Positions 3,397 through 53,513 of a stretch of 64,000 nucleotides of DNA are shown here, piece by piece. Made by a program: the position numbers and the translations under genes. The notes under the pieces are model-generated. The model was not told the origin of the DNA and searched no databases. It saw only the letters and a list, made by a program, of their open reading frames with translations. Source of the DNA: a virus (Duplodnaviria > Caudoviricetes); IMG/VR virus record IMGVR_UViG_3300011531_000019, positions 3,421-67,420 of that record. The stretch is one strand, 5' to 3'. Position 1 is the first letter of the stretch, and each line of letters starts with the position of its first letter.

Positions 3397-4545
3397 ATGA
3401 AGTGGAAACGAACACCGCAGGGGTACGTGATTACCACTGCGACGATAACCCGTGCCGGGCCGATTGAGTATTACGGCCACGAACTCGGGTTAACCGGCAG
3501 CGATGCCAACAAAAAAATCACCGTTATCCGCACCCTCGACGAACTGTCAAAACCCGAAACACTCGCTTCCTTCAACGGCCTCCCGTTCACCATTACTCAC
3601 CCCGATGACGGGGAGGTGACCGCTGCAGACCATAAAGACAAGGCATCTGGTCACATTGCTAACACACGCATCGAAGGTGGTGAGGTGGTTTGCGACGTTT
3701 ATCTGACTGATGCCGCAGCAATCGAGACGCTCGAGGAGACGGGGATACGTGAGGTTTCAGTGGGGTATGAGCCTGCGGAGCTGGTGGAGCGTGGCGGGAA
3801 GTTTTACCACATTAACATTCGCGGCAATCACGTCGCGGGCGTGGCAGAGGGGCGTTACGGGCCTCAGTGTAAGTTAAACGACAAAAAAGGTAAGCCAATG
3901 TTCAAAACATTAACTGATGCCCTGCGTTTCCTGAAGGGCAAAAAACTCAAGGATGCGGAAGGCGCCGCGCTAACTCCTGATGAACTGGTCGGAATGATCG
4001 CCGCACTGGAAAAAGCTCTGGAGGATTTGAGTGTCCAGGGAACAGAAGAAGCGACGGCGCAGGCTCAGGAAGTGCTGGCGCAACTCGCAGACCTCAAGAA
4101 ACAACTGGAAGGCATGACCGGGGCGCCGGTGACCACAGATGAAGATCCCGGTACTGCTGGTGGCGATGACAAGGACACGAAAATCGCTGCGCTTGAAACC
4201 GAAAACGCCGATCTAAAAGCGAAGATTAAGGCGCTGGAAGACGAGCTTGAACAACTGAAATCTGGCAATGAAGCCAGCACTACGCTTGCTGACGCAAAAG
4301 CCCGATTCCCGAAAGTTAATTTCAACGATGCCAAATCAGCGCGTGACGTTCGCGCCGCTGTTCTGGTGAGCACTAAGGCATTTAACGATGCCCAGGTCAA
4401 AACAATGACCGATAGCGAAGTACGTGCGGCTTACGCAGCCATTCAGGCGACCTCTAAGCCGCGTAGTGAAATCGGTGCTCACCTGCTCAATGACTCCTCG
4501 AAACAAAGCACCAAAACCGCAACTCAACGCCTTGGGGGTAAATAA
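3397..4545 (+). CDS. DUF2213-type prohead protease/scaffold protein
   Basis: EVSVGY and GNHVA.V..GR.G motifs, then an acidic coiled-coil scaffold-like region. Confidence 0.82.
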   Translation: MKWKRTPQGYVITTATITRAGPIEYYGHELGLTGSDANKKITVIRTLDELSKPETLASFNGLPFTITHPDDGEVTAADHKDKASGHIANTRIEGGEVVCDVYLTDAAAIETLEETGIREVSVGYEPAELVERGGKFYHINIRGNHVAGVAEGRYGPQCKLNDKKGKPMFKTLTDALRFLKGKKLKDAEGAALTPDELVGMIAALEKALEDLSVQGTEEATAQAQEVLAQLADLKKQLEGMTGAPVTTDEDPGTAGGDDKDTKIAALETENADLKAKIKALEDELEQLKSGNEASTTLADAKARFPKVNFNDAKSARDVRAAVLVSTKAFNDAQVKTMTDSEVRAAYAAIQATSKPRSEIGAHLLNDSSKQSTKTATQRLGGK

Positions 4546-46512: not shown

Positions 46513-46561
46513 CGCATTCGTAATGCGAAGGTCGTAGGTTCGACTCCTATTATCGGCACCA
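46513..46561 (+). repeat. thrW: 3' half of tRNA-Thr(CGU); attR of island 2 / attL of island 3
   Basis: cgcattcgtaatgcgaaggtcgtaggttcgactcctattatcggcacca; matches the E. coli thrW 3' half as recalled; no 5' half. Confidence 0.92.
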
Positions 46562-46674
46562 TTTCAAACTCTTCCCAAGTCTACCGTAATCAACTAAAAG
46601 CCCGTATACTGCGGTTTATGGCCCGTATTTTATCTCCTGTTATCAACTGGACTCAACCAAAATCAAGTCGCAGT

Positions 46675-46695
46675 TGGGGGCATAAGTGGGGGCAT
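46675..46695 (+). repeat. P4-family integrase arm-type direct repeat
   Basis: tgggggcat-aag-tgggggcat upstream of int. Confidence 0.65.
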
Positions 46696-46724
46696 TCTGT
46701 GTTCGGTCCAGGGAGATGCCCCCA

Positions 46725-47933
46725 ATGAAGCTTAATGCACGACAGGTAGATGCTGCTAAACCCAGAGAGAAAGCCTACAAGCTGGCAGATGGTGCTGGTT
46801 TGTATCTTGAGGTTGCTCCCTCTGGTTCCAGATACTGGCGGATGAAGTATCGCTTCAATGGAAAAGAGAAGCGTATGGCTTTTGGTGTCTATCCGGCCGT
46901 GTCCCTTGCACAAGCGAGGGCACTACGTGATCAAGCCAAGAAAAAGCTGGCCGAGGGCATCGATCCGTCTTTCGCTAAGAAAGAAGAAAAGCTGGTTCGC
47001 GATGTGCAGCTCAACAACACGTTTCAGGCTGTGGCGCTTGAATGGCACGGAACGAAGGTGAGCCGGTGGTCAGAAGGTTATGCCTCCGACATTATCGAAG
47101 CTTTCAATAAAGATATTTTCCCCTATATCGGCCAGCAGCCGGTGAATGAAATCAAACCGCTGGTTCTGCTGAATGTGCTGCGTCGAATGGAAAGTCGTGG
47201 CGCGACAGAGAAGGCCAAGAAGGTTCGCCAGCGTTGCAGTGAAGTCTTTCGTTACGCCATCGTTACCGGTCGTGCGGAATACAATCCTGCAGCGGATCTA
47301 ACCAGCGCAATGTCAGGGCATGAATCGAAGCATTATCCCTTCCTTACTGTTGAGGAGTTACCAGACTTCTTTAAAGCTCTCGCAGGCTACACAGGAAGCC
47401 CGTTAGTTGTTCTTGCCGCTCGTCTGCTGATCCTTACGGGAGTTCGTACTGGCGAGCTCCGAGGTGCTTTCTGGAGTGAATTTGATCTTGAGAAAGCGGT
47501 GTGGGAAATCCCTGCAGAGCGTATGAAGATGAAACGGCCTCACCTTGTCCCCCTCTCTACCCAAGCACTAGAGATCGTACAGCAGCTCAAAGTGATGTCT
47601 GGGCAATATCCTCTGGTGTTTCCTGGGAGGAATGATCCCCGCAAAACGATGAGCGAAGCGAGTATAAATCAGGTGTTCAAGCGGATTGGATATACGGGGA
47701 AGGTAACGGGGCATGGTTTCCGCCACACGATGAGTACGATTTTGCATGAGGAAGGGTTTAATACGGCATGGATTGAAACCCAGCTTGCGCATGTCGATAA
47801 GAATGCGATTCGCGGGACATACAACCATGCGTTGTATCTGGAAGGGCGAAGGGAGATGATGCAGTGGTATGCGGACCATATAAACGCTAATCAAAATTCA
47901 TGTATTTCTTTGCTGGTGAACGCTAGAAAGTAG
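46725..47933 (+). CDS. int: P4-like (IntS/IntA family) tyrosine integrase
   Basis: MKLNARQV..AKP.EK.YKL.DG.GLYL; TGVRTGEL, HGFRHT, QLAH, YNHA. Confidence 0.96.
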   Translation: MKLNARQVDAAKPREKAYKLADGAGLYLEVAPSGSRYWRMKYRFNGKEKRMAFGVYPAVSLAQARALRDQAKKKLAEGIDPSFAKKEEKLVRDVQLNNTFQAVALEWHGTKVSRWSEGYASDIIEAFNKDIFPYIGQQPVNEIKPLVLLNVLRRMESRGATEKAKKVRQRCSEVFRYAIVTGRAEYNPAADLTSAMSGHESKHYPFLTVEELPDFFKALAGYTGSPLVVLAARLLILTGVRTGELRGAFWSEFDLEKAVWEIPAERMKMKRPHLVPLSTQALEIVQQLKVMSGQYPLVFPGRNDPRKTMSEASINQVFKRIGYTGKVTGHGFRHTMSTILHEEGFNTAWIETQLAHVDKNAIRGTYNHALYLEGRREMMQWYADHINANQNSCISLLVNARK

Positions 47934-48174
47934 ATTTGACGTGATGATAGGATTGATTAGGAAAAAGACCTAAAACCGTATATTTTGATACTTAAGTTTA
48001 AACATTAGCCCTAGATCCGATTGCCCTTTGTTACCTACACTTCTATCTTTTTTAGGTTTTAGGGCTGAAAGGTTTGCGAATAAGTTTATAAATATCAATA
48101 ATTTACCTGATTATGTTGGTTCTTGGGTAGCCGTAACGCCTAGGGCGGTAGCGTACTTAAGGCGAGTATAAAAA

Positions 48175-49368
48175 ATGAACAGTAACTATATGCCATTCAC
48201 ACAACGAGATAGTCTCGGAAGATACTATACAAAAGAATCCATAAGTGCATTATTGGTTTCTCAGATGAAAGCTGAAAAAGTCAATAATATTATTGATTTA
48301 GCTTCTGGTGAGGGGAGCTTAACCTATGCCGCTTTAGACCGATGGAAGAATGCAGAAGCATATTCTTTGGATATAGAATCTCGGATGTCAAAAAAAGTAT
48401 GTGATAATCTTACTCATATCGTAACAGATGCCCTTGTTCATTCATTTCCTGAAATGCTTGCCCGACATCAAGGAAATTTTGATGTTGCAGTATGTAATCC
48501 TCCATTCACACTCCCTGAATGGAGGGATGATTATTTTAAAATCATTAGTGAGATTGGGGCAGATAAATATATATCTATCTCAAAATATGTCCCAGCAGAG
48601 ATAATATTTATATCTCAAGTCATCAGGTTTCTTAAAAAGGGCGGTGAGGCTGGGATAATTTTACCTGATGGTATATTTACAGCAAGAAAATTTATAGGTT
48701 TAAGACGATATTTATTGAATGAACATTCAATTACAAAAGTCATTGAATTACCTAGGAATATCTTCAAAAGGACAGAGGCTAAAACACATATTTTGATTTT
48801 TAATAAAAAAATTGTGCCTCATCAGAAAATACAATTACATTGTATAACTAAAGATGGGGAATTGTCACCTCCTGTTTTAATTAGAAAAGAAGATGCGATT
48901 GAGAGAATGGACTACTCTTATCATTATAATAAAAATGAAGAGTTTAGCACAATTGGAATGCTTAAAAATATTTCAATTTTTAGAGGTAGGTTTAATTCAA
49001 AGGAAATTACGGAACATGTTTTTCATACGACAAAGTTTAGTGGTGATGAAAAGTTTATTAAATTCCACTGCAACTCTGTAGAAGAATTGAAGCCATCAAA
49101 ATTAGATGTTATTGCTAAGCCTGGTGATATATTAATAGCAAGGGTTGGGCGAAATTTTCATAAAAAAATATTGTTTGTTGAGAGCGGGTATTCTTATATC
49201 AGTGACTGTATTTTTCTGATACGAGCCTCTGGTGAAGATCAGAAAAAACTATTTGATTTTCTTTGTTCTCAAGATGGGCAAGAGGAATTATCTCGAGCGA
49301 GTAGTGGTGTAGCCGCACAACATATTACAATGGATGCATTAAAAAAAATACATCTTGTAAGGATTTAA
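48175..49368 (+). CDS. Compact N6-adenine DNA methyltransferase with C-terminal TRD-like region
   Basis: LGRYYT, IIDLASGEGSL (motif I), NPPF (motif IV), GIILPDG; C-terminal AKPGDILIARVG as in TRDs. Confidence 0.85.
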   Translation: MNSNYMPFTQRDSLGRYYTKESISALLVSQMKAEKVNNIIDLASGEGSLTYAALDRWKNAEAYSLDIESRMSKKVCDNLTHIVTDALVHSFPEMLARHQGNFDVAVCNPPFTLPEWRDDYFKIISEIGADKYISISKYVPAEIIFISQVIRFLKKGGEAGIILPDGIFTARKFIGLRRYLLNEHSITKVIELPRNIFKRTEAKTHILIFNKKIVPHQKIQLHCITKDGELSPPVLIRKEDAIERMDYSYHYNKNEEFSTIGMLKNISIFRGRFNSKEITEHVFHTTKFSGDEKFIKFHCNSVEELKPSKLDVIAKPGDILIARVGRNFHKKILFVESGYSYISDCIFLIRASGEDQKKLFDFLCSQDGQEELSRASSGVAAQHITMDALKKIHLVRI

Positions 49369-49369
49369 C

Positions 49370-51076
49370 ATGACTGATGTGGAATTAGATAGTAAATTTC
49401 TTGTCGAGGAACGAGCTGATTATATTGATGAGGATACGATAAAAAATAATACTATCAGATCTGGAGAGTTTTTCAATATTATACATAATGCTCTTATATC
49501 CCCAGGAATCAAACTTATAGTTGGTCCTAGGGGATGTGGTAAAACACATTTGATGCGTTATGCTTGGGTTGAATGTAAAAATGATGATAACGCACCATTA
49601 CCACTCTATGTTTCCTTTAATAAATATTTTAAGTTAGAGCCACTTTTAAAAACTAAACCTAATGCAATTGATCTCTTTCATAAATGGGTATTAGCAAAGA
49701 TACTACTCTCTGCTTATGAAATTGCTTGCGATATTGAAGATTCTGAAGATCTTGATTTGTCAACGATACTCATAGCGGATAAAGAGTTCCTGATTAATTT
49801 AATCGTAAGGCTTGAGCAGGGTCTTTCGCCATCATTAGAACAAGAAAACATTGTTCAATTGATCAGTGTTTCTTCTGTCATATCCTCGTTGAGTTCACTA
49901 TGCGATTGGCTTGAACGTAAAAGAGTCATTATTTTATTAGACGATGCTGCAATAAGCTTAACTCCTGAATATCTTTACGAGTTTTTTGATATTGTACGTA
50001 GTCTAAAAACCTCAAAAATAGCTTTAAAGGCATCGGTTTATCCTGGAACAACCGAATATGGCCCAAGGTTTCATGTTGCTCATGATGCTGAAACAATTGA
50101 TGCTTGGATTTCGGTACAGCACCCTAATTATTCCTCAGTGATGGATGCTATAGCGCAGGCAAGGTTTCCTGGGTATGATGGCATTCCGGATGACTTGAAA
50201 GAGTTATTTAAATTTTCAGCATTTGGAATTCCACGTTCTTTTTTGATGATGTTAAGGGATTGTCAAACAACTTTAAGTCAGACAACTCAGCAAAAATTCA
50301 ATAAAATAATTGAAAAGTATGTTGAGCTTAGACTCAGCGAATACAGTTCACTAAAAGATAAGCTACCTCGATTGTTTGACATTGTTTCATTAGGTGAATC
50401 ACTTTTATTAAAAGTAGTCGAATTACTCAAGGAAAGTAACTCCCAATATAAAGAAGAGAAACAAGTCATAATCGGTATAGAGAAAAATGATAATGTTTAT
50501 TTTTCTCGACTCACTAAACTATTAATTGAAACAGGGCTTTTTTATAATCTTCCTGATATTTCTCATGGTGATGGGCGTACTTATGAAAGATATATACCTC
50601 ATTATGCTTTATTGATAAAGGAAAGAGTGTTTAACGAAGGAAGTAGAGGTTTTTCTCCCTCTCAGATTATTCAGAAAATACTAAGAAAGAATGCTAAGCA
50701 TCCTGTCAGAAGAAACATTTCATCATTATTCAATACTGAGCAACTTGCGAGGCTTAAACTAACTTTACCTCCATGCAATAACTGCAAGACTCCGCGATTG
50801 ACTGACAATCAAAAATTTTGCCACCATTGTGGGAACCAATTGATTGATGAGTCGGCCTATAATCAGTGCATGTCTATTCCACTTTCAAAAGTACCACATC
50901 TAACATCTTGGCAAATGCAAAAACTATCTGGGCTGGAAAAAGTAAAAACTATAGGAGATGTATTGTCTTTACAAGACCCAGGGAGTGAGTTAAGAAAAAT
51001 TCACAGAATAGGACCCAAAATTGCCAATAAAATTATGGACAAAGTGTTATTACATGTTGAAGAATTTTTGTCTTAA
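49370..51076 (+). CDS. AAA+/ORC-CDC6-like ATPase with C-terminal Zn ribbon and HhH-like tail
   Basis: GPRGCGKT, IILLDD, FGIPRSF; CNNC...FCHHCG; LRKIHRIGPKIANKI. Confidence 0.75.
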   Translation: MTDVELDSKFLVEERADYIDEDTIKNNTIRSGEFFNIIHNALISPGIKLIVGPRGCGKTHLMRYAWVECKNDDNAPLPLYVSFNKYFKLEPLLKTKPNAIDLFHKWVLAKILLSAYEIACDIEDSEDLDLSTILIADKEFLINLIVRLEQGLSPSLEQENIVQLISVSSVISSLSSLCDWLERKRVIILLDDAAISLTPEYLYEFFDIVRSLKTSKIALKASVYPGTTEYGPRFHVAHDAETIDAWISVQHPNYSSVMDAIAQARFPGYDGIPDDLKELFKFSAFGIPRSFLMMLRDCQTTLSQTTQQKFNKIIEKYVELRLSEYSSLKDKLPRLFDIVSLGESLLLKVVELLKESNSQYKEEKQVIIGIEKNDNVYFSRLTKLLIETGLFYNLPDISHGDGRTYERYIPHYALLIKERVFNEGSRGFSPSQIIQKILRKNAKHPVRRNISSLFNTEQLARLKLTLPPCNNCKTPRLTDNQKFCHHCGNQLIDESAYNQCMSIPLSKVPHLTSWQMQKLSGLEKVKTIGDVLSLQDPGSELRKIHRIGPKIANKIMDKVLLHVEEFLS

Positions 51077-51146
51077 TTTTGATGGCATTTACTTGTCAAT
51101 CGTGTCTTTCTTATCTGAAAAGTTTAATTTAAAAAGAGTCGGGAAA

Positions 51147-52139
51147 ATGGAACTAGAATCAAAAGAGGATTATGAAGAGACCACTCATCATAATGTGGCG
51201 TCCTCAGTTGTTACTGCAACTCATGATAACTTAGATGGAAGAGAGTTTTTTGAACTATGTAGTAATCCAGCTCTAGTTTTTTCGTTTGAGACACACAAAA
51301 AATTTAATGAGTTACCTGTTGATAGCAAGGAATCCCCGTTAGATCTTTTTATAGCTAATACAAAGCAACTTCACTTGTTAAGATCTGTTGATATTTCAAA
51401 CACATTAAGCCATCTGTTGTTATTAGGCTATGTGTCGGCAGCCGAAAGTTATTTGCGAGCTCTTATCAGGAATCTAATTAATCATGATGAATATATTCAG
51501 TCTATAGTTTGTGATAAGGCCGTTAGTTATGCAGCGGCACAACATCATAAAAAGGAGTTATTACCAGAAGCTTTACTTGAGGACTTTTCATTGGCAAGCC
51601 CTTATAATGTTTTTGAAACATTAAAGGACATTATTGGAATGAAAGGACAAAGACCAATCGAAATGATGAAATGCTCAAGCGAATTCATGAAAGTTTGTGA
51701 GTTAAGGCATTGTTGTGTTCATCGATTTGGTAAGTTGGGTTCGAAAAATGCAATCCGACTAGGATTGGCTGAACATATGAAGCACTTAGAAAAACCGATA
51801 ATACTCAATAATGATGATCTCGAGCAAATCGCATTTATTGTAGAGAATTTTATTAGAACTTTGAATAACACCGTTTTCAAATTTATAATTAATCGTACAG
51901 TTGAGAACAAAAATAAGGAAAAAGGAGGGGAAAGACTATATGATTCTGAATGGACATGGGTGTTTGAAAAAGATATAAGTCGATTCGAAAAGTATTATGC
52001 AATATTTAGTGCTAAAAACGATACCCTTCCCGGATTATCATTACAGGATTCATATCAACTTTTTGTTAATGCGTATAAGCCTAAACCTCCTGCAAGAAAA
52101 AATAAAAAAACTGTAAAAGTTAACGACCCTACTATCTGA
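51147..52139 (+). CDS. HEPN-domain protein (putative RNase)
   Basis: VSAAESYLR helix and R-x4-H motif RHCCVH; start taken at MELESK. Confidence 0.72.
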   Translation: MELESKEDYEETTHHNVASSVVTATHDNLDGREFFELCSNPALVFSFETHKKFNELPVDSKESPLDLFIANTKQLHLLRSVDISNTLSHLLLLGYVSAAESYLRALIRNLINHDEYIQSIVCDKAVSYAAAQHHKKELLPEALLEDFSLASPYNVFETLKDIIGMKGQRPIEMMKCSSEFMKVCELRHCCVHRFGKLGSKNAIRLGLAEHMKHLEKPIILNNDDLEQIAFIVENFIRTLNNTVFKFIINRTVENKNKEKGGERLYDSEWTWVFEKDISRFEKYYAIFSAKNDTLPGLSLQDSYQLFVNAYKPKPPARKNKKTVKVNDPTI

Positions 52140-52327
52140 AAATATTGGTGATTTTTACTTGAAATGGCAGGGTGTTATTTTTTTGATTGAACATGGCTAA
52201 TGTTAAATATCTAATTATTTGAAACTTCTAGCTATATTAATAAATGTAATGTGTGAATGATGATGGTGCTTGCTTTAACTATAGATTGTTATTCCATATG
52301 GAAATTATGTAGCATCGCAATTAATTT

Positions 52328-52579
52328 TTATTGATAGATTTCCGCAACCCCGTGCAGTCGGTTATTCCCCGTAGTCGACAGGATTTTGAATGATGTTGCT
52401 CCTTGCTCATCAGCCTTACGAGAGAGCGCATTCGATAAATCATCAAGCGTATAGGCATTACTGGCTGAGGCTACACCCATCTTTTCTTTCCCATCTGCGT
52501 GGTCAATTTCCTGAGCGGCAGATGCGGCATTCACTGCAGTAAATCTCATGACCAATGAAGTAATAAGTAGTGATTTCAT
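52328..52579 (-). CDS. DUF1471 (BhsA/McbA/YdgH-family) protein
   Basis: L..KADEQGATSF.I.S..G.N..HG.A.IY motif. Confidence 0.85.
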   Translation of the reverse strand: MKSLLITSLVMRFTAVNAASAAQEIDHADGKEKMGVASASNAYTLDDLSNALSRKADEQGATSFKILSTTGNNRLHGVAEIYQ

Positions 52580-52719: not shown

Positions 52720-53280
52720 TTAATTTTTTGAATACAAATTCAGCTCGTTAACAATGAACTCCGCTTCTTCCTTGAGAGGCATATTGTCTATGTCTAAAAC
52801 CCCATCATTTTTTTGTGGATCATCAGTCTGCAGGTCTGCAAACAGTGGGGTAAGATCCTGTGGTGCTTCACCTCGTTCAGCCACCAGCTCGAACGTTTTG
52901 TTTTTTGCCTCGTCGTTGGTCAGGGCACTGACCAGAACCTCTGCGATTTGCTCCCGGGATATCACACCATCTTCCGGTGTTCCCGCGTGGCGACGATCCC
53001 CCTGAAGCATAACGATCCTGTGTTCATCATCATTGTTGTAATCAAACCAGCCGGGCCTGACGATGGTATAGGGATGACCGCTGGCCCTGACCAGACACTC
53101 GGCACGTCTTTTCCAGTCATGAACCTCAGTGCGTTGATTCCAGATGCTGAGCCGTTTAGTCACACCAATCGTGGTCATCAGGCTGATACGAACAGGCGTA
53201 TCCTTGAAAATTCATAAAATATTACGTGCTACGCCGTAATCGATCGCTCTGGCACCAATATGACCCTGACCATCGGCACC
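52720..53280 (-). pseudogene. 5'-truncated NAD(P)-binding SDR/NmrA-like oxidoreductase with internal stop
   Basis: Frame reads GADGQGHIGARAIDYGVARNIL*IFKD..MTTIG..YTIVRPG; TGA at 53212-53214; Rossmann N-terminus missing. Confidence 0.8.
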
Positions 53281-53320
53281 ATTTCAAACTCTTTCCAAGT
53301 CTACCGAAATCAACTTAAAG
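53272..53320 (+). repeat. Second copy of att core plus arm (46/49 identical to 46552-46600)
   Basis: atcggcaccatttcaaactctttccaagtctaccgaaatcaacttaaag. Confidence 0.9.
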
Positions 53321-53513
53321 TCCATCTCTGTTGTGTTTTGTCATCTGTAATCGCGACGTACAATGCGCTTGCGTCAGGGAATTCCAGGACTCTAAACTGT
53401 CCGTAACACATGCCCGATAAAGAATTATGCTCTAACACATATGTTTTTTCGTATTTGTTAATTGATCTTATTCATTTAAGGCGTATCCTGACTTCAATAG
53501 AACAGGAGGCCTA

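Follow-up and report, generated by a model that had tools for sequence, protein, structure and literature searches.

The locus at positions 48175–52139 of the DNA stretch studied here raises the question of what a DNA methyltransferase, an ATPase and a predicted RNase of the HEPN fold, standing in a row, may accomplish together for the genome that carries them. The stretch, referred to as the window, comprises 64,000 nt of the IMG/VR record IMGVR_UViG_3300011531_000019 (positions 3,421–67,420), and all coordinates given are the window's own. Within the locus three co-directional open reading frames (ORFs) of 397, 568 and 330–372 aa were found, hereafter gene 1 (methyltransferase, MTase), gene 2 (ATPase) and gene 3 (HEPN protein). 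The domain calls of an initial annotation of this DNA, namely an MTase with a target recognition domain (TRD), an AAA+ ATPase with a zinc ribbon and a helix-hairpin-helix (HhH) tail, and a HEPN protein, agree with the profiles, structural models and motifs obtained here, and no restriction endonuclease is evident in the three proteins by Pfam, PADLOC, NCBIfam or fold search, as was also claimed there. The answer preferred here, with a probability of about one half, is that the trio acts as a restriction-modification (R-M)-like anti-phage system with an RNase effector, in which self would be marked by methylation and the ATPase would serve as the switch; the HEPN protein is the sole candidate effector in the cassette.

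The cassette was followed through other genomes from two sides. A scan seeded with gene 3, taking one genome per species, gave 54 loci in Alpha-, Beta- and Gammaproteobacteria, Myxococcota, Bacteroidota and Acidobacteriota, and genes 1 and 2 were adjacent to and co-directional with gene 3 in 52 of them, the other two being a locus without upstream sequence and a remnant. Independent seeding with gene 2 yielded 89 loci (nine from IMG/VR and 80 from metagenomes), with gene 3 directly 3' of gene 2 wherever the contig left room for it (82/82) and with gene 1 present in 64 of the 66 loci having room on both sides; in the two loci without gene 1 the sequence stops at the border of the contig or at an insertion sequence (IS) element. 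The co-occurrence across genomes expected in the initial annotation is borne out by these counts. The order MTase-ATPase-HEPN is kept nearly always, the arrangement ATPase-HEPN-MTase being met in four of the 54 loci, and in the same set the stop of gene 2 often overlaps the start of gene 3 by 1–4 nt. No conserved fourth gene was found at these loci, where recurring neighbours reach at most six of the 54 and are integrases. Since each of the three genes has hundreds of homologues, they are not chance ORFs. The cassette was found on integrase islands, on IS-flanked segments, on megaplasmids and at unrelated chromosomal sites, and 148 of the 5426 complete Escherichia coli genomes (2.7%) carry it; the trio is a self-contained, horizontally mobile module. 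Because the catalytic and zinc-binding residues are invariant in 108 intact trios, all three activities are taken to be jointly under purifying selection.

Gene 1 (48175..49368, plus strand, 397 aa) was assigned to the gamma-class N6-adenine DNA methyltransferases by Pfam, PADLOC, NCBIfam and motifs. Its product scores 81 bits against PF02384 N6_Mtase (cut-off 20.4) and 754 bits, over the full length, against the REBASE-derived PADLOC model MTase_II PDLC03285, and the succession of its elements is that of the gamma class: motif I, then motif IV of the NPPY/F type, then a C-terminal TRD. The catalytic domain covers approximately residues 10–230, with DLASGEGS as motif I and NPPF as motif IV, and the C-terminal ~150 residues (~245–395) form a single HsdS-like TRD, to which the S-subunit-like model NF047740 matches at residues 244–395. 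The NPP[YF] motif is present in 108 of 108 trios, and the S-adenosylmethionine (AdoMet) motif DLASGEGS is likewise invariant. The matches to PglX models are partial, with 27.8–31.4 bits against a cut-off of 500. As judged from these motifs and profiles, gene 1 encodes an active-looking N6-adenine methyltransferase equipped with its own TRD.

Gene 2 (49370..51076, plus strand, 568 aa), separated from gene 1 by a gap of 1 bp, was assigned as an ORC/Cdc6-STAND-type AAA+ ATPase by its AlphaFold2 (AF2) model, Foldseek and Pfam. The model has a predicted local distance difference test score (pLDDT) of 85.9, and its best Foldseek matches are ORC4, archaeal Orc1/Cdc6, CED-4, Apaf-1, plant NLRs, Avs3, MalT and TnsC, with a probability of 1.00 and E-values down to 2e-6. 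The architecture, read from the secondary structure of the model together with Pfam and the invariant residues, consists of an AAA+ core at ~47–250 (Walker A GPRGCGKT; Walker B D191-D192), a helical lid at 254–360 and a winged helix at 368–417, this being the layout of the ORC/Cdc6-STAND clade, and of a tail with a C4 zinc ribbon at 469–487 and an HhH region at 494–567. K58, D191, D192 and the four cysteines of the zinc ribbon are invariant in the 108 trios, and a part of the lid/winged-helix region matches a phage 'transcriptional regulator' PHROG. No nuclease domain was detected in gene 2 by Pfam, PADLOC, NCBIfam or the fold search, and the protein is an active-looking ATPase with three predicted DNA-binding modules and no nuclease. 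As a separate observation, residues 13–18 (window 49406–49423), ahead of the P-loop and in a low-confidence part of the model, carry an invariant E-E-R-A-D-Y, and an R-A-E motif akin to its EERAD portion is invariant in the PRTase-CE-linked ATPases of PF24389.

Gene 3 (51147..52139, plus strand, 330 aa) was assigned as a HEPN-fold predicted RNase by its AF2 model, VIA-align and motifs. Its ATG at 51147, preceded by a purine-rich ribosome-binding-like site (GGGA/GAG), lies 70 bp beyond the stop of gene 2, so that both spacings of the initial annotation (1 bp, and 70 bp to this ATG) are correct; two other possible starts, ATG 51054 and TTG 51021, would make the gene overlap gene 2, and the RefSeq start of gene 3 in E. 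coli is an upstream one. The AF2 model (pLDDT 83.8) is a four-helix up-down bundle with an insert, 114–170, between helices 2 and 3, and it was compared by exhaustive VIA-align with 48,161 PDB representatives. HEPN or HEPN-like proteins made up 13 of the top 14 chains, with Z of 5.9–7.3 over residues 58–250, among them the chains sacsin 3o10, 1ufb, 1wol, 2hsb, HepS 9oik, HepT 7ae2 and 5yep, with TT1696, ST0689 and AF0298 among the proteins represented, and lower in the ranking AbiA, LsoA, Csm6, RnlA and Csx1 were found. The string RHCCVH, which the initial annotation had singled out, is present as R187-H188-C-C-V-H192 at the end of helix 3 (171–192), with the polar H188 after the arginine, and is the best-conserved stretch of the gene-3 family; an Ex3R element, E100-S-Y-L-R104, lies in helix 2 (85–113), and E100, R104, R187, H188 and H192 are invariant in 108/108 trios. 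By the HEPN definition, helix 3 closes at its C terminus with Rx4-6H, the arginine being followed by a polar N, D or H, helix 2 bears a conserved acidic residue, typically within Ex3[KR], and an insert parts helices 2 and 3 (PMC3710099). Because the positions of the motifs match this definition, besides a fold match of middling Z, gene 3 was taken as a HEPN protein, an assignment that is held with high confidence.

The profile searches place gene 3 at the margin of the described HEPN families. NCBIfam and PHROG gave no match, Foldseek with the model found no PDB entry at E <= 0.001, so that the HEPN chains emerged from VIA-align alone, and the gene-3 family profile found no match among PDB sequences at E <= 10; the PADLOC model RTasHEPN matches weakly (E 0.005). 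The distant relatives of gene 3 reach 19–25.3 bits against PF18735 (HEPN_RiboL-PSP; cut-off 28.4), the best of them spanning almost the whole model, and the neighbours in the protein-language-model ESM Atlas are named HEPN_RiboL-PSP, as is a homologue in one source. PF18735, which falls within the Abi-type HEPN clades, is the nearest HEPN family, from which gene 3 differs by an extra conserved C-terminal region and by its obligatory ATPase partner; that region has conserved W269, D276 and F287, and the tail 255–330 is fast-evolving. A double-HEPN reading of gene 3 was rejected, as a second Rx4H string, RNLINH, is not conserved (R108 is kept and the position of H113 varies). RNase activity is predicted for gene 3, the HEPN domain of which looks active, from its family membership; HEPN RNases are metal-independent and leave 2',3'-cyclic phosphate ends.

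According to the preferred reading, the methyltransferase would methylate a TRD-specified motif on the resident DNA as the self mark, and the ATPase would load on DNA and, probably with the methyltransferase as its specificity subunit, detect target sites that lack methylation on incoming DNA. By oligomerising in an ATP-dependent manner, like ORC and STAND switches, the ATPase would bring the HEPN subunits into their dimeric active form, and the HEPN RNase would then cut tRNA, rRNA or mRNA, so that translation would stop and the infection would abort, or the cell would arrest before phage release. A more far-reaching version, namely a widespread minimal form of immunity with methylation-based self/non-self discrimination, a TRD-guided ATPase assembling the HEPN protein, RNA cleavage as the sole output and no DNase, is put forward tentatively, at somewhat less than even odds; it would tie epigenetic self-marking to abortive infection in a new way.

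The roles of the parts in this scheme are drawn from their rates of divergence and from natural knock-outs. Domain-wise identity was compared among the 108 trios, close pairs being those with ATPases 80–95% identical. The fastest regions in such pairs are the MTase TRD (66% identity) and the HEPN C-terminal tail (70%), and the steady ones are the AAA+, lid, winged-helix and zinc-ribbon/HhH modules of the ATPase (85–88%) and the HEPN core (85%). As the ATPase modules evolve slowly and none of them tracks the divergence of the TRD, the methylase is a likelier seat of the sequence specificity than the ATPase tail, and DNA binding by the ATPase is probably independent of sequence; specificity carried by the methylase is likewise known from BREX and from type I/III R-M. 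The suggestion of the initial annotation that the ATPase reads DNA through its zinc ribbon/HhH tail therefore stands as to the presence of these domains and is weakened as to any sequence specificity located there. The fast TRD and HEPN tail, which diverge where an arms race would lead one to expect it, point to a conflict with an outside partner. A wholesale swap of TRDs between near-identical systems was looked for and not seen, the divergence being gradual, with a minimum TRD identity of 50% at 80–95% ATPase identity.

As for the knock-outs, insertions of IS1 and IS3 split the ATPase gene in complete E. coli genomes, leaving the MTase and HEPN genes intact, the HEPN gene of one E. coli genome had its 3' end clipped by IS903B, and the ATPase was broken in five of five decayed loci of other species. 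Since the HEPN gene is tolerated without the ATPase, the latter is better understood as an activator or sensor than as an antitoxin, which suggests that the ATPase activates the HEPN protein and does not restrain it. Breakage of the MTase alone is rare, as would be expected if methylation protected the host, and with so few events this hints weakly at such a role.

Several observations weigh against this reading. No Pfam HEPN model reaches its threshold on gene 3, and 27 homologues are likewise without a Pfam match; the HEPN fold match is middling, Z of about 7 being reachable by chance for helical bundles. A broken MTase beside a seemingly intact ATPase and HEPN protein was seen once, in a metagenome contig (L130:3948-4936), where ~67 residues of the MTase are missing and a frameshift is present; an assembly error is possible, and unless it is one, or the event is very recent, this locus fits strict MTase-dependent self-protection poorly. 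A divergent relative on the plasmid NZ_CP139695.1 of Limimaricola variabilis (L150:4968-9079) combines an ATPase of 30% identity with a HEPN protein of 28% identity, its active site kept, and the methylase is replaced there by an unrelated 442-aa protein without Pfam matches, with ParDE and HipA toxin-antitoxin genes adjoining; given this relative, the ATPase-HEPN pair might not need methylation, and because the methylase is missing from it, the pair looks like the older core to which the methylase was added for self-marking. Finally, the 118 nearest neighbours at 31 loci are mostly integrases, transposases and housekeeping genes, and no strong enrichment of defence genes is seen among them, a comparison made with no control set and given little weight.

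The likeliest alternative, although still improbable, is a guard arrangement of the PrrC-EcoprrI type, in which the methylase, or a methylase-ATPase complex, would be the bait that silences the HEPN protein, phage anti-restriction proteins would release the RNase, and methylation would be secondary. PrrC is a HEPN anticodon nuclease that an R-M enzyme keeps silent until a phage peptide frees it, and R-M genes are neighbours of many HEPN families (PMC3710099). The fast TRD and HEPN tail would also suit surfaces touched by phage proteins, and the Limimaricola relative lacking the MTase indicates that the ATPase-HEPN pair can have another partner. However, the invariance of NPP[YF] and of the AdoMet motif in the 108 trios argues that methyl transfer is selected and not a bait surface alone, the toleration of ATPase knock-outs with an intact HEPN gene argues that silencing is at any rate not the task of the ATPase, and the lone broken-MTase locus also speaks against a guard.

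It is improbable that the cassette is in essence a selfish addiction element, whose loss would dilute the methylation and let the ATPase-HEPN pair kill the cell, the island being stabilised in this way and phage defence being a side effect at most. Travel on integrase islands, IS-flanked segments and megaplasmids would agree with such a role, as would the place of the Limimaricola version among ParDE and HipA genes, and decay appears to start with the ATPase rather than with the MTase. Addiction is, however, compatible with defence, as classical R-M does both; the fast divergence of the TRD and HEPN tail indicates an outside partner, and the presence of the cassette in only 2.7% of the E. coli genomes is not that of an element that has swept.

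A similarly small chance is given to a BREX-like exclusion without cleavage, in which the ATPase and methylase would block the replication of unmethylated DNA and the HEPN protein would be a back-up suicide device or would have another nucleic-acid target. BREX has an ORC/Cdc6-clade ATPase, BrxC, together with an N6A methylase and no nuclease, gene 2 has three predicted DNA-binding modules, and HEPN proteins were proposed as back-up effectors of BREX-related systems (PMC12839542). Against exclusion, the HEPN gene is strictly tied to the ATPase gene (82/82), often translationally, and its active site is invariant; furthermore, there is no other effector, PglZ, helicase or fourth gene in the cassette, and a back-up without a primary effector is unlikely. 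That the trio has no part in immunity and is an epigenetic or replication module of its island, with an ORC-like initiator or regulator reading methylated DNA, is very improbable, since the closeness of the gene 2 fold to the replication initiators Orc1/Cdc6 and ORC4 and the PHROG match of its lid/winged-helix part are outweighed by the occurrence of the same trio on mobile backbones and in chromosomal locations that are unrelated to one another, by a HEPN partner that is always active-site-intact, by the lack of any gene-2 relative in a collection of 50,697 phage genomes and by IS insertions that abolish the cassette without loss of the island.

For the preferred reading, an R-M-like system with an RNase effector, the question follows whether it has already been described. 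No named system for the trio was found in PADLOC-DB 2.0.0, in NCBIfam 20.0 (June 2026) or in the literature searched by domain combination and by protein accession, and the statement of the initial annotation that the trio matches no named system holds within these sources, the PADLOC check having given no full match. PADLOC-DB 2.0.0 recognises the methylase only, its matches to genes 2 and 3 being at chance level, and NCBIfam 20.0 has no model for either; as genes 2 and 3 go unrecognised by the catalogues and the cassette is widespread, it would, if the preferred reading is right, fill a gap in the catalogues of defence systems. In the DefensePredictor supplement (PMC13092281), WP_111606142.1 (566 aa) carries the label 'Predicted novel defense gene' and log-odds of 11.9. 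This protein bears all the motifs of the gene-2 family. In the DefensePredictor file of named systems, DS-41 and DS-28 among them, no zinc-ribbon, HsdM-family or ORC-CDC6 protein is included. The gene-2 family is flagged by machine learning and is not named, or analysed as a trio, in the literature searched.

The described systems nearest in logic differ from the cassette in their composition. Classical R-M of types I–III does not cover it, as no nuclease, helicase or restriction endonuclease family is found in the three proteins and no fourth gene is conserved. The Hma or Type-1 'BREX-related' systems, consisting of a (HEPN-)DUF499 ATPase, an N6-adenine methyltransferase and a helicase-nuclease (PMC12839542; first noted in PMC3710099), are the nearest of those described, ahead of PrrC-EcoprrI and BREX, and share the R-M-like logic. 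The cassette, in contrast, has no Swi2/Snf2 helicase-nuclease or other DNase, its HEPN protein is encoded by a separate downstream gene and is not an N-terminal fusion or a back-up, gene 2 has no DUF499, HmaC or BrxC match at E up to 0.1 in Pfam and PADLOC, and gene 1 is of the HsdM/Eco57I-like gamma class with an HsdS-like TRD and not of the DUF1156 type. PrrC-EcoprrI and RloC, anticodon nucleases associated with R-M or with DNA damage, are alike in tying an NTPase-regulated HEPN RNase to a DNA methylation system, with translational shut-off as the expected outcome. Their ATPase, however, is Rad50-like, of the ABC type and fused to a C-terminal HEPN domain, whereas that of the cassette is AAA+/ORC-like and unfused, and the partner in the cassette is a lone methylase with its own TRD instead of a full set of type I R-M proteins that includes HsdR. 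BREX type 1 resembles the cassette in an ORC/Cdc6-clade ATPase, in a TRD-bearing N6A methylase as the specificity factor and in the lack of a restriction endonuclease; it has six genes against three, the cassette is without PglZ, BrxA, BrxB and BrxL, no PglZ or BrxC model was matched, and HEPN is obligatory.

Membership in MADS (MAD1-8) also failed, the MAD2 model giving 58.5 bits against a cut-off of 720 and mad8 an E-value of 0.0037 over the P-loop only. The ORC-CDC6-like ATPases of PF24389, which are associated with PRTase-CE genes, share an N-terminal stretch with gene 2, the match of which to the 571-position model scores 39.3 bits (cut-off 27) over residues 40–69 only, the Walker A region. 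An hhalign comparison of the gene 2 family with full-length PF24389 members gave a probability of 94% over 62 columns only, containing the N-terminal R-A-[DE] and the P-loop; the first 60–70 residues align with gene 2, and the remaining ~500 residues, with the zinc ribbon and HhH tail, and the partners differ. Judging from such comparisons, the cassette probably belongs among the methylation-linked, ATPase-driven defence systems, being set apart by an RNase as its sole candidate effector. If the preferred reading is true, a three-gene system of ~4 kb, small enough to be cloned easily, would couple site-specific DNA methylation, the oldest principle of self-marking in bacterial immunity, to RNA-degrading abortive infection via an ORC/STAND switch, and it would offer a tractable model both for the sensing of unmodified DNA by nuclease-less methylation systems, such as BREX, and for the switching-on of HEPN RNases by an ATPase.

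In the window, the cassette lies on an integrative island. The view of the initial annotation that it is an AT-rich three-gene operon and the main cargo of an island is upheld by a drop of the GC content to 0.30–0.37 across 48000–52500, against 0.43–0.54 on either side (the genes themselves having 30–36% GC in a background of 45–53%), and by a 52-nt direct repeat, found in a repeat search of the window, whose left (46552..46603, plus strand) and right (53272..53323, plus strand) copies are 92% identical and mark the island boundaries. The island between them, ~6.7 kb long, contains a tyrosine integrase of 415 aa (46686..47933, plus strand; phrog_1 integrase, E 1e-79), the E. coli HS counterpart of which is annotated as a tyrosine-type recombinase/integrase, and the three cassette genes, and since the repeat brackets the integrase and the trio, the latter was taken as the cargo of the island. 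The first bases of the left copy of the repeat are the final 10 nt of a tRNA-Thr 3' end, and a whole tRNA was not found in the window by ARAGORN. An ORF of 83 aa between the cassette and the right repeat (52328–52579, minus strand), matching phrog_8068 and phrog_29776, two PHROG families without an assigned function, is not kept with the trio at other loci in the 54-locus comparison. A scan for sigma-70 promoters was uninformative in the AT-rich cassette DNA (21 sites against 20.3 expected), and no terminator-like site was found downstream of gene 3. A DNA search of a plasmid collection gave no relative of gene 2; because the phage collection mentioned above has none either, the cassette is regarded as belonging to an integrative island beside a prophage and not as phage-borne, and the IMG/VR label of the window is explained by the prophage and island next to each other there.

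The matching site in E. coli, proA / tRNA-Thr / integrase, is a hot spot. In E. coli Z226-5 (L057:3313-11906) the same integrase family carries another cargo at the proA/tRNA-Thr site, consisting of three hypothetical genes (857, 490 and 240 aa) and a 1210-aa SIR2-family gene, and for this reason the site was considered to be a hot spot for the swapping of cargo. In E. coli HS (L001:14787-22308), an IS1 and a gene fragment alone part the cassette from BREX in one and the same island, brxA starting 1.7 kb downstream; the strain used for the experimental study of the HS BREX also carries the cassette (PMC6326788). The neighbours at some other loci include AbiTii and GmrSD genes, and this mobile, accessory setting with defence genes nearby speaks for the preferred reading. 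In 4–5 unrelated genomes (L004:11011-14001 with the third gene downstream; L009, L026, L030 and L033) the trio adjoins another three-gene set, composed of a PRTase-CE protein (PF24390), a full-length PF24389 ORC-CDC6-like ATPase (~650 aa) and a ~305-aa protein without a Pfam family, which looks like a second conflict system with a paralogous ATPase. The plasmid p2 of Planktothrix agardhii (L151:3357-10043) encodes a distant relative of gene 2 (27.5% identity over 300 aa), clustered with genes for a PAPS-reductase-family protein, a DEAD/DEAH helicase and a further ATP-binding protein; the cluster possibly serves defence by phosphorothioate (Ssp-like) or some other DNA modification. In a metagenome protein of 522 aa (P0041), the MTase catalytic domain, without the TRD, is fused directly to HEPN, and a possible origin of this form is an in-frame deletion that removed the TRD together with the entire ATPase gene.

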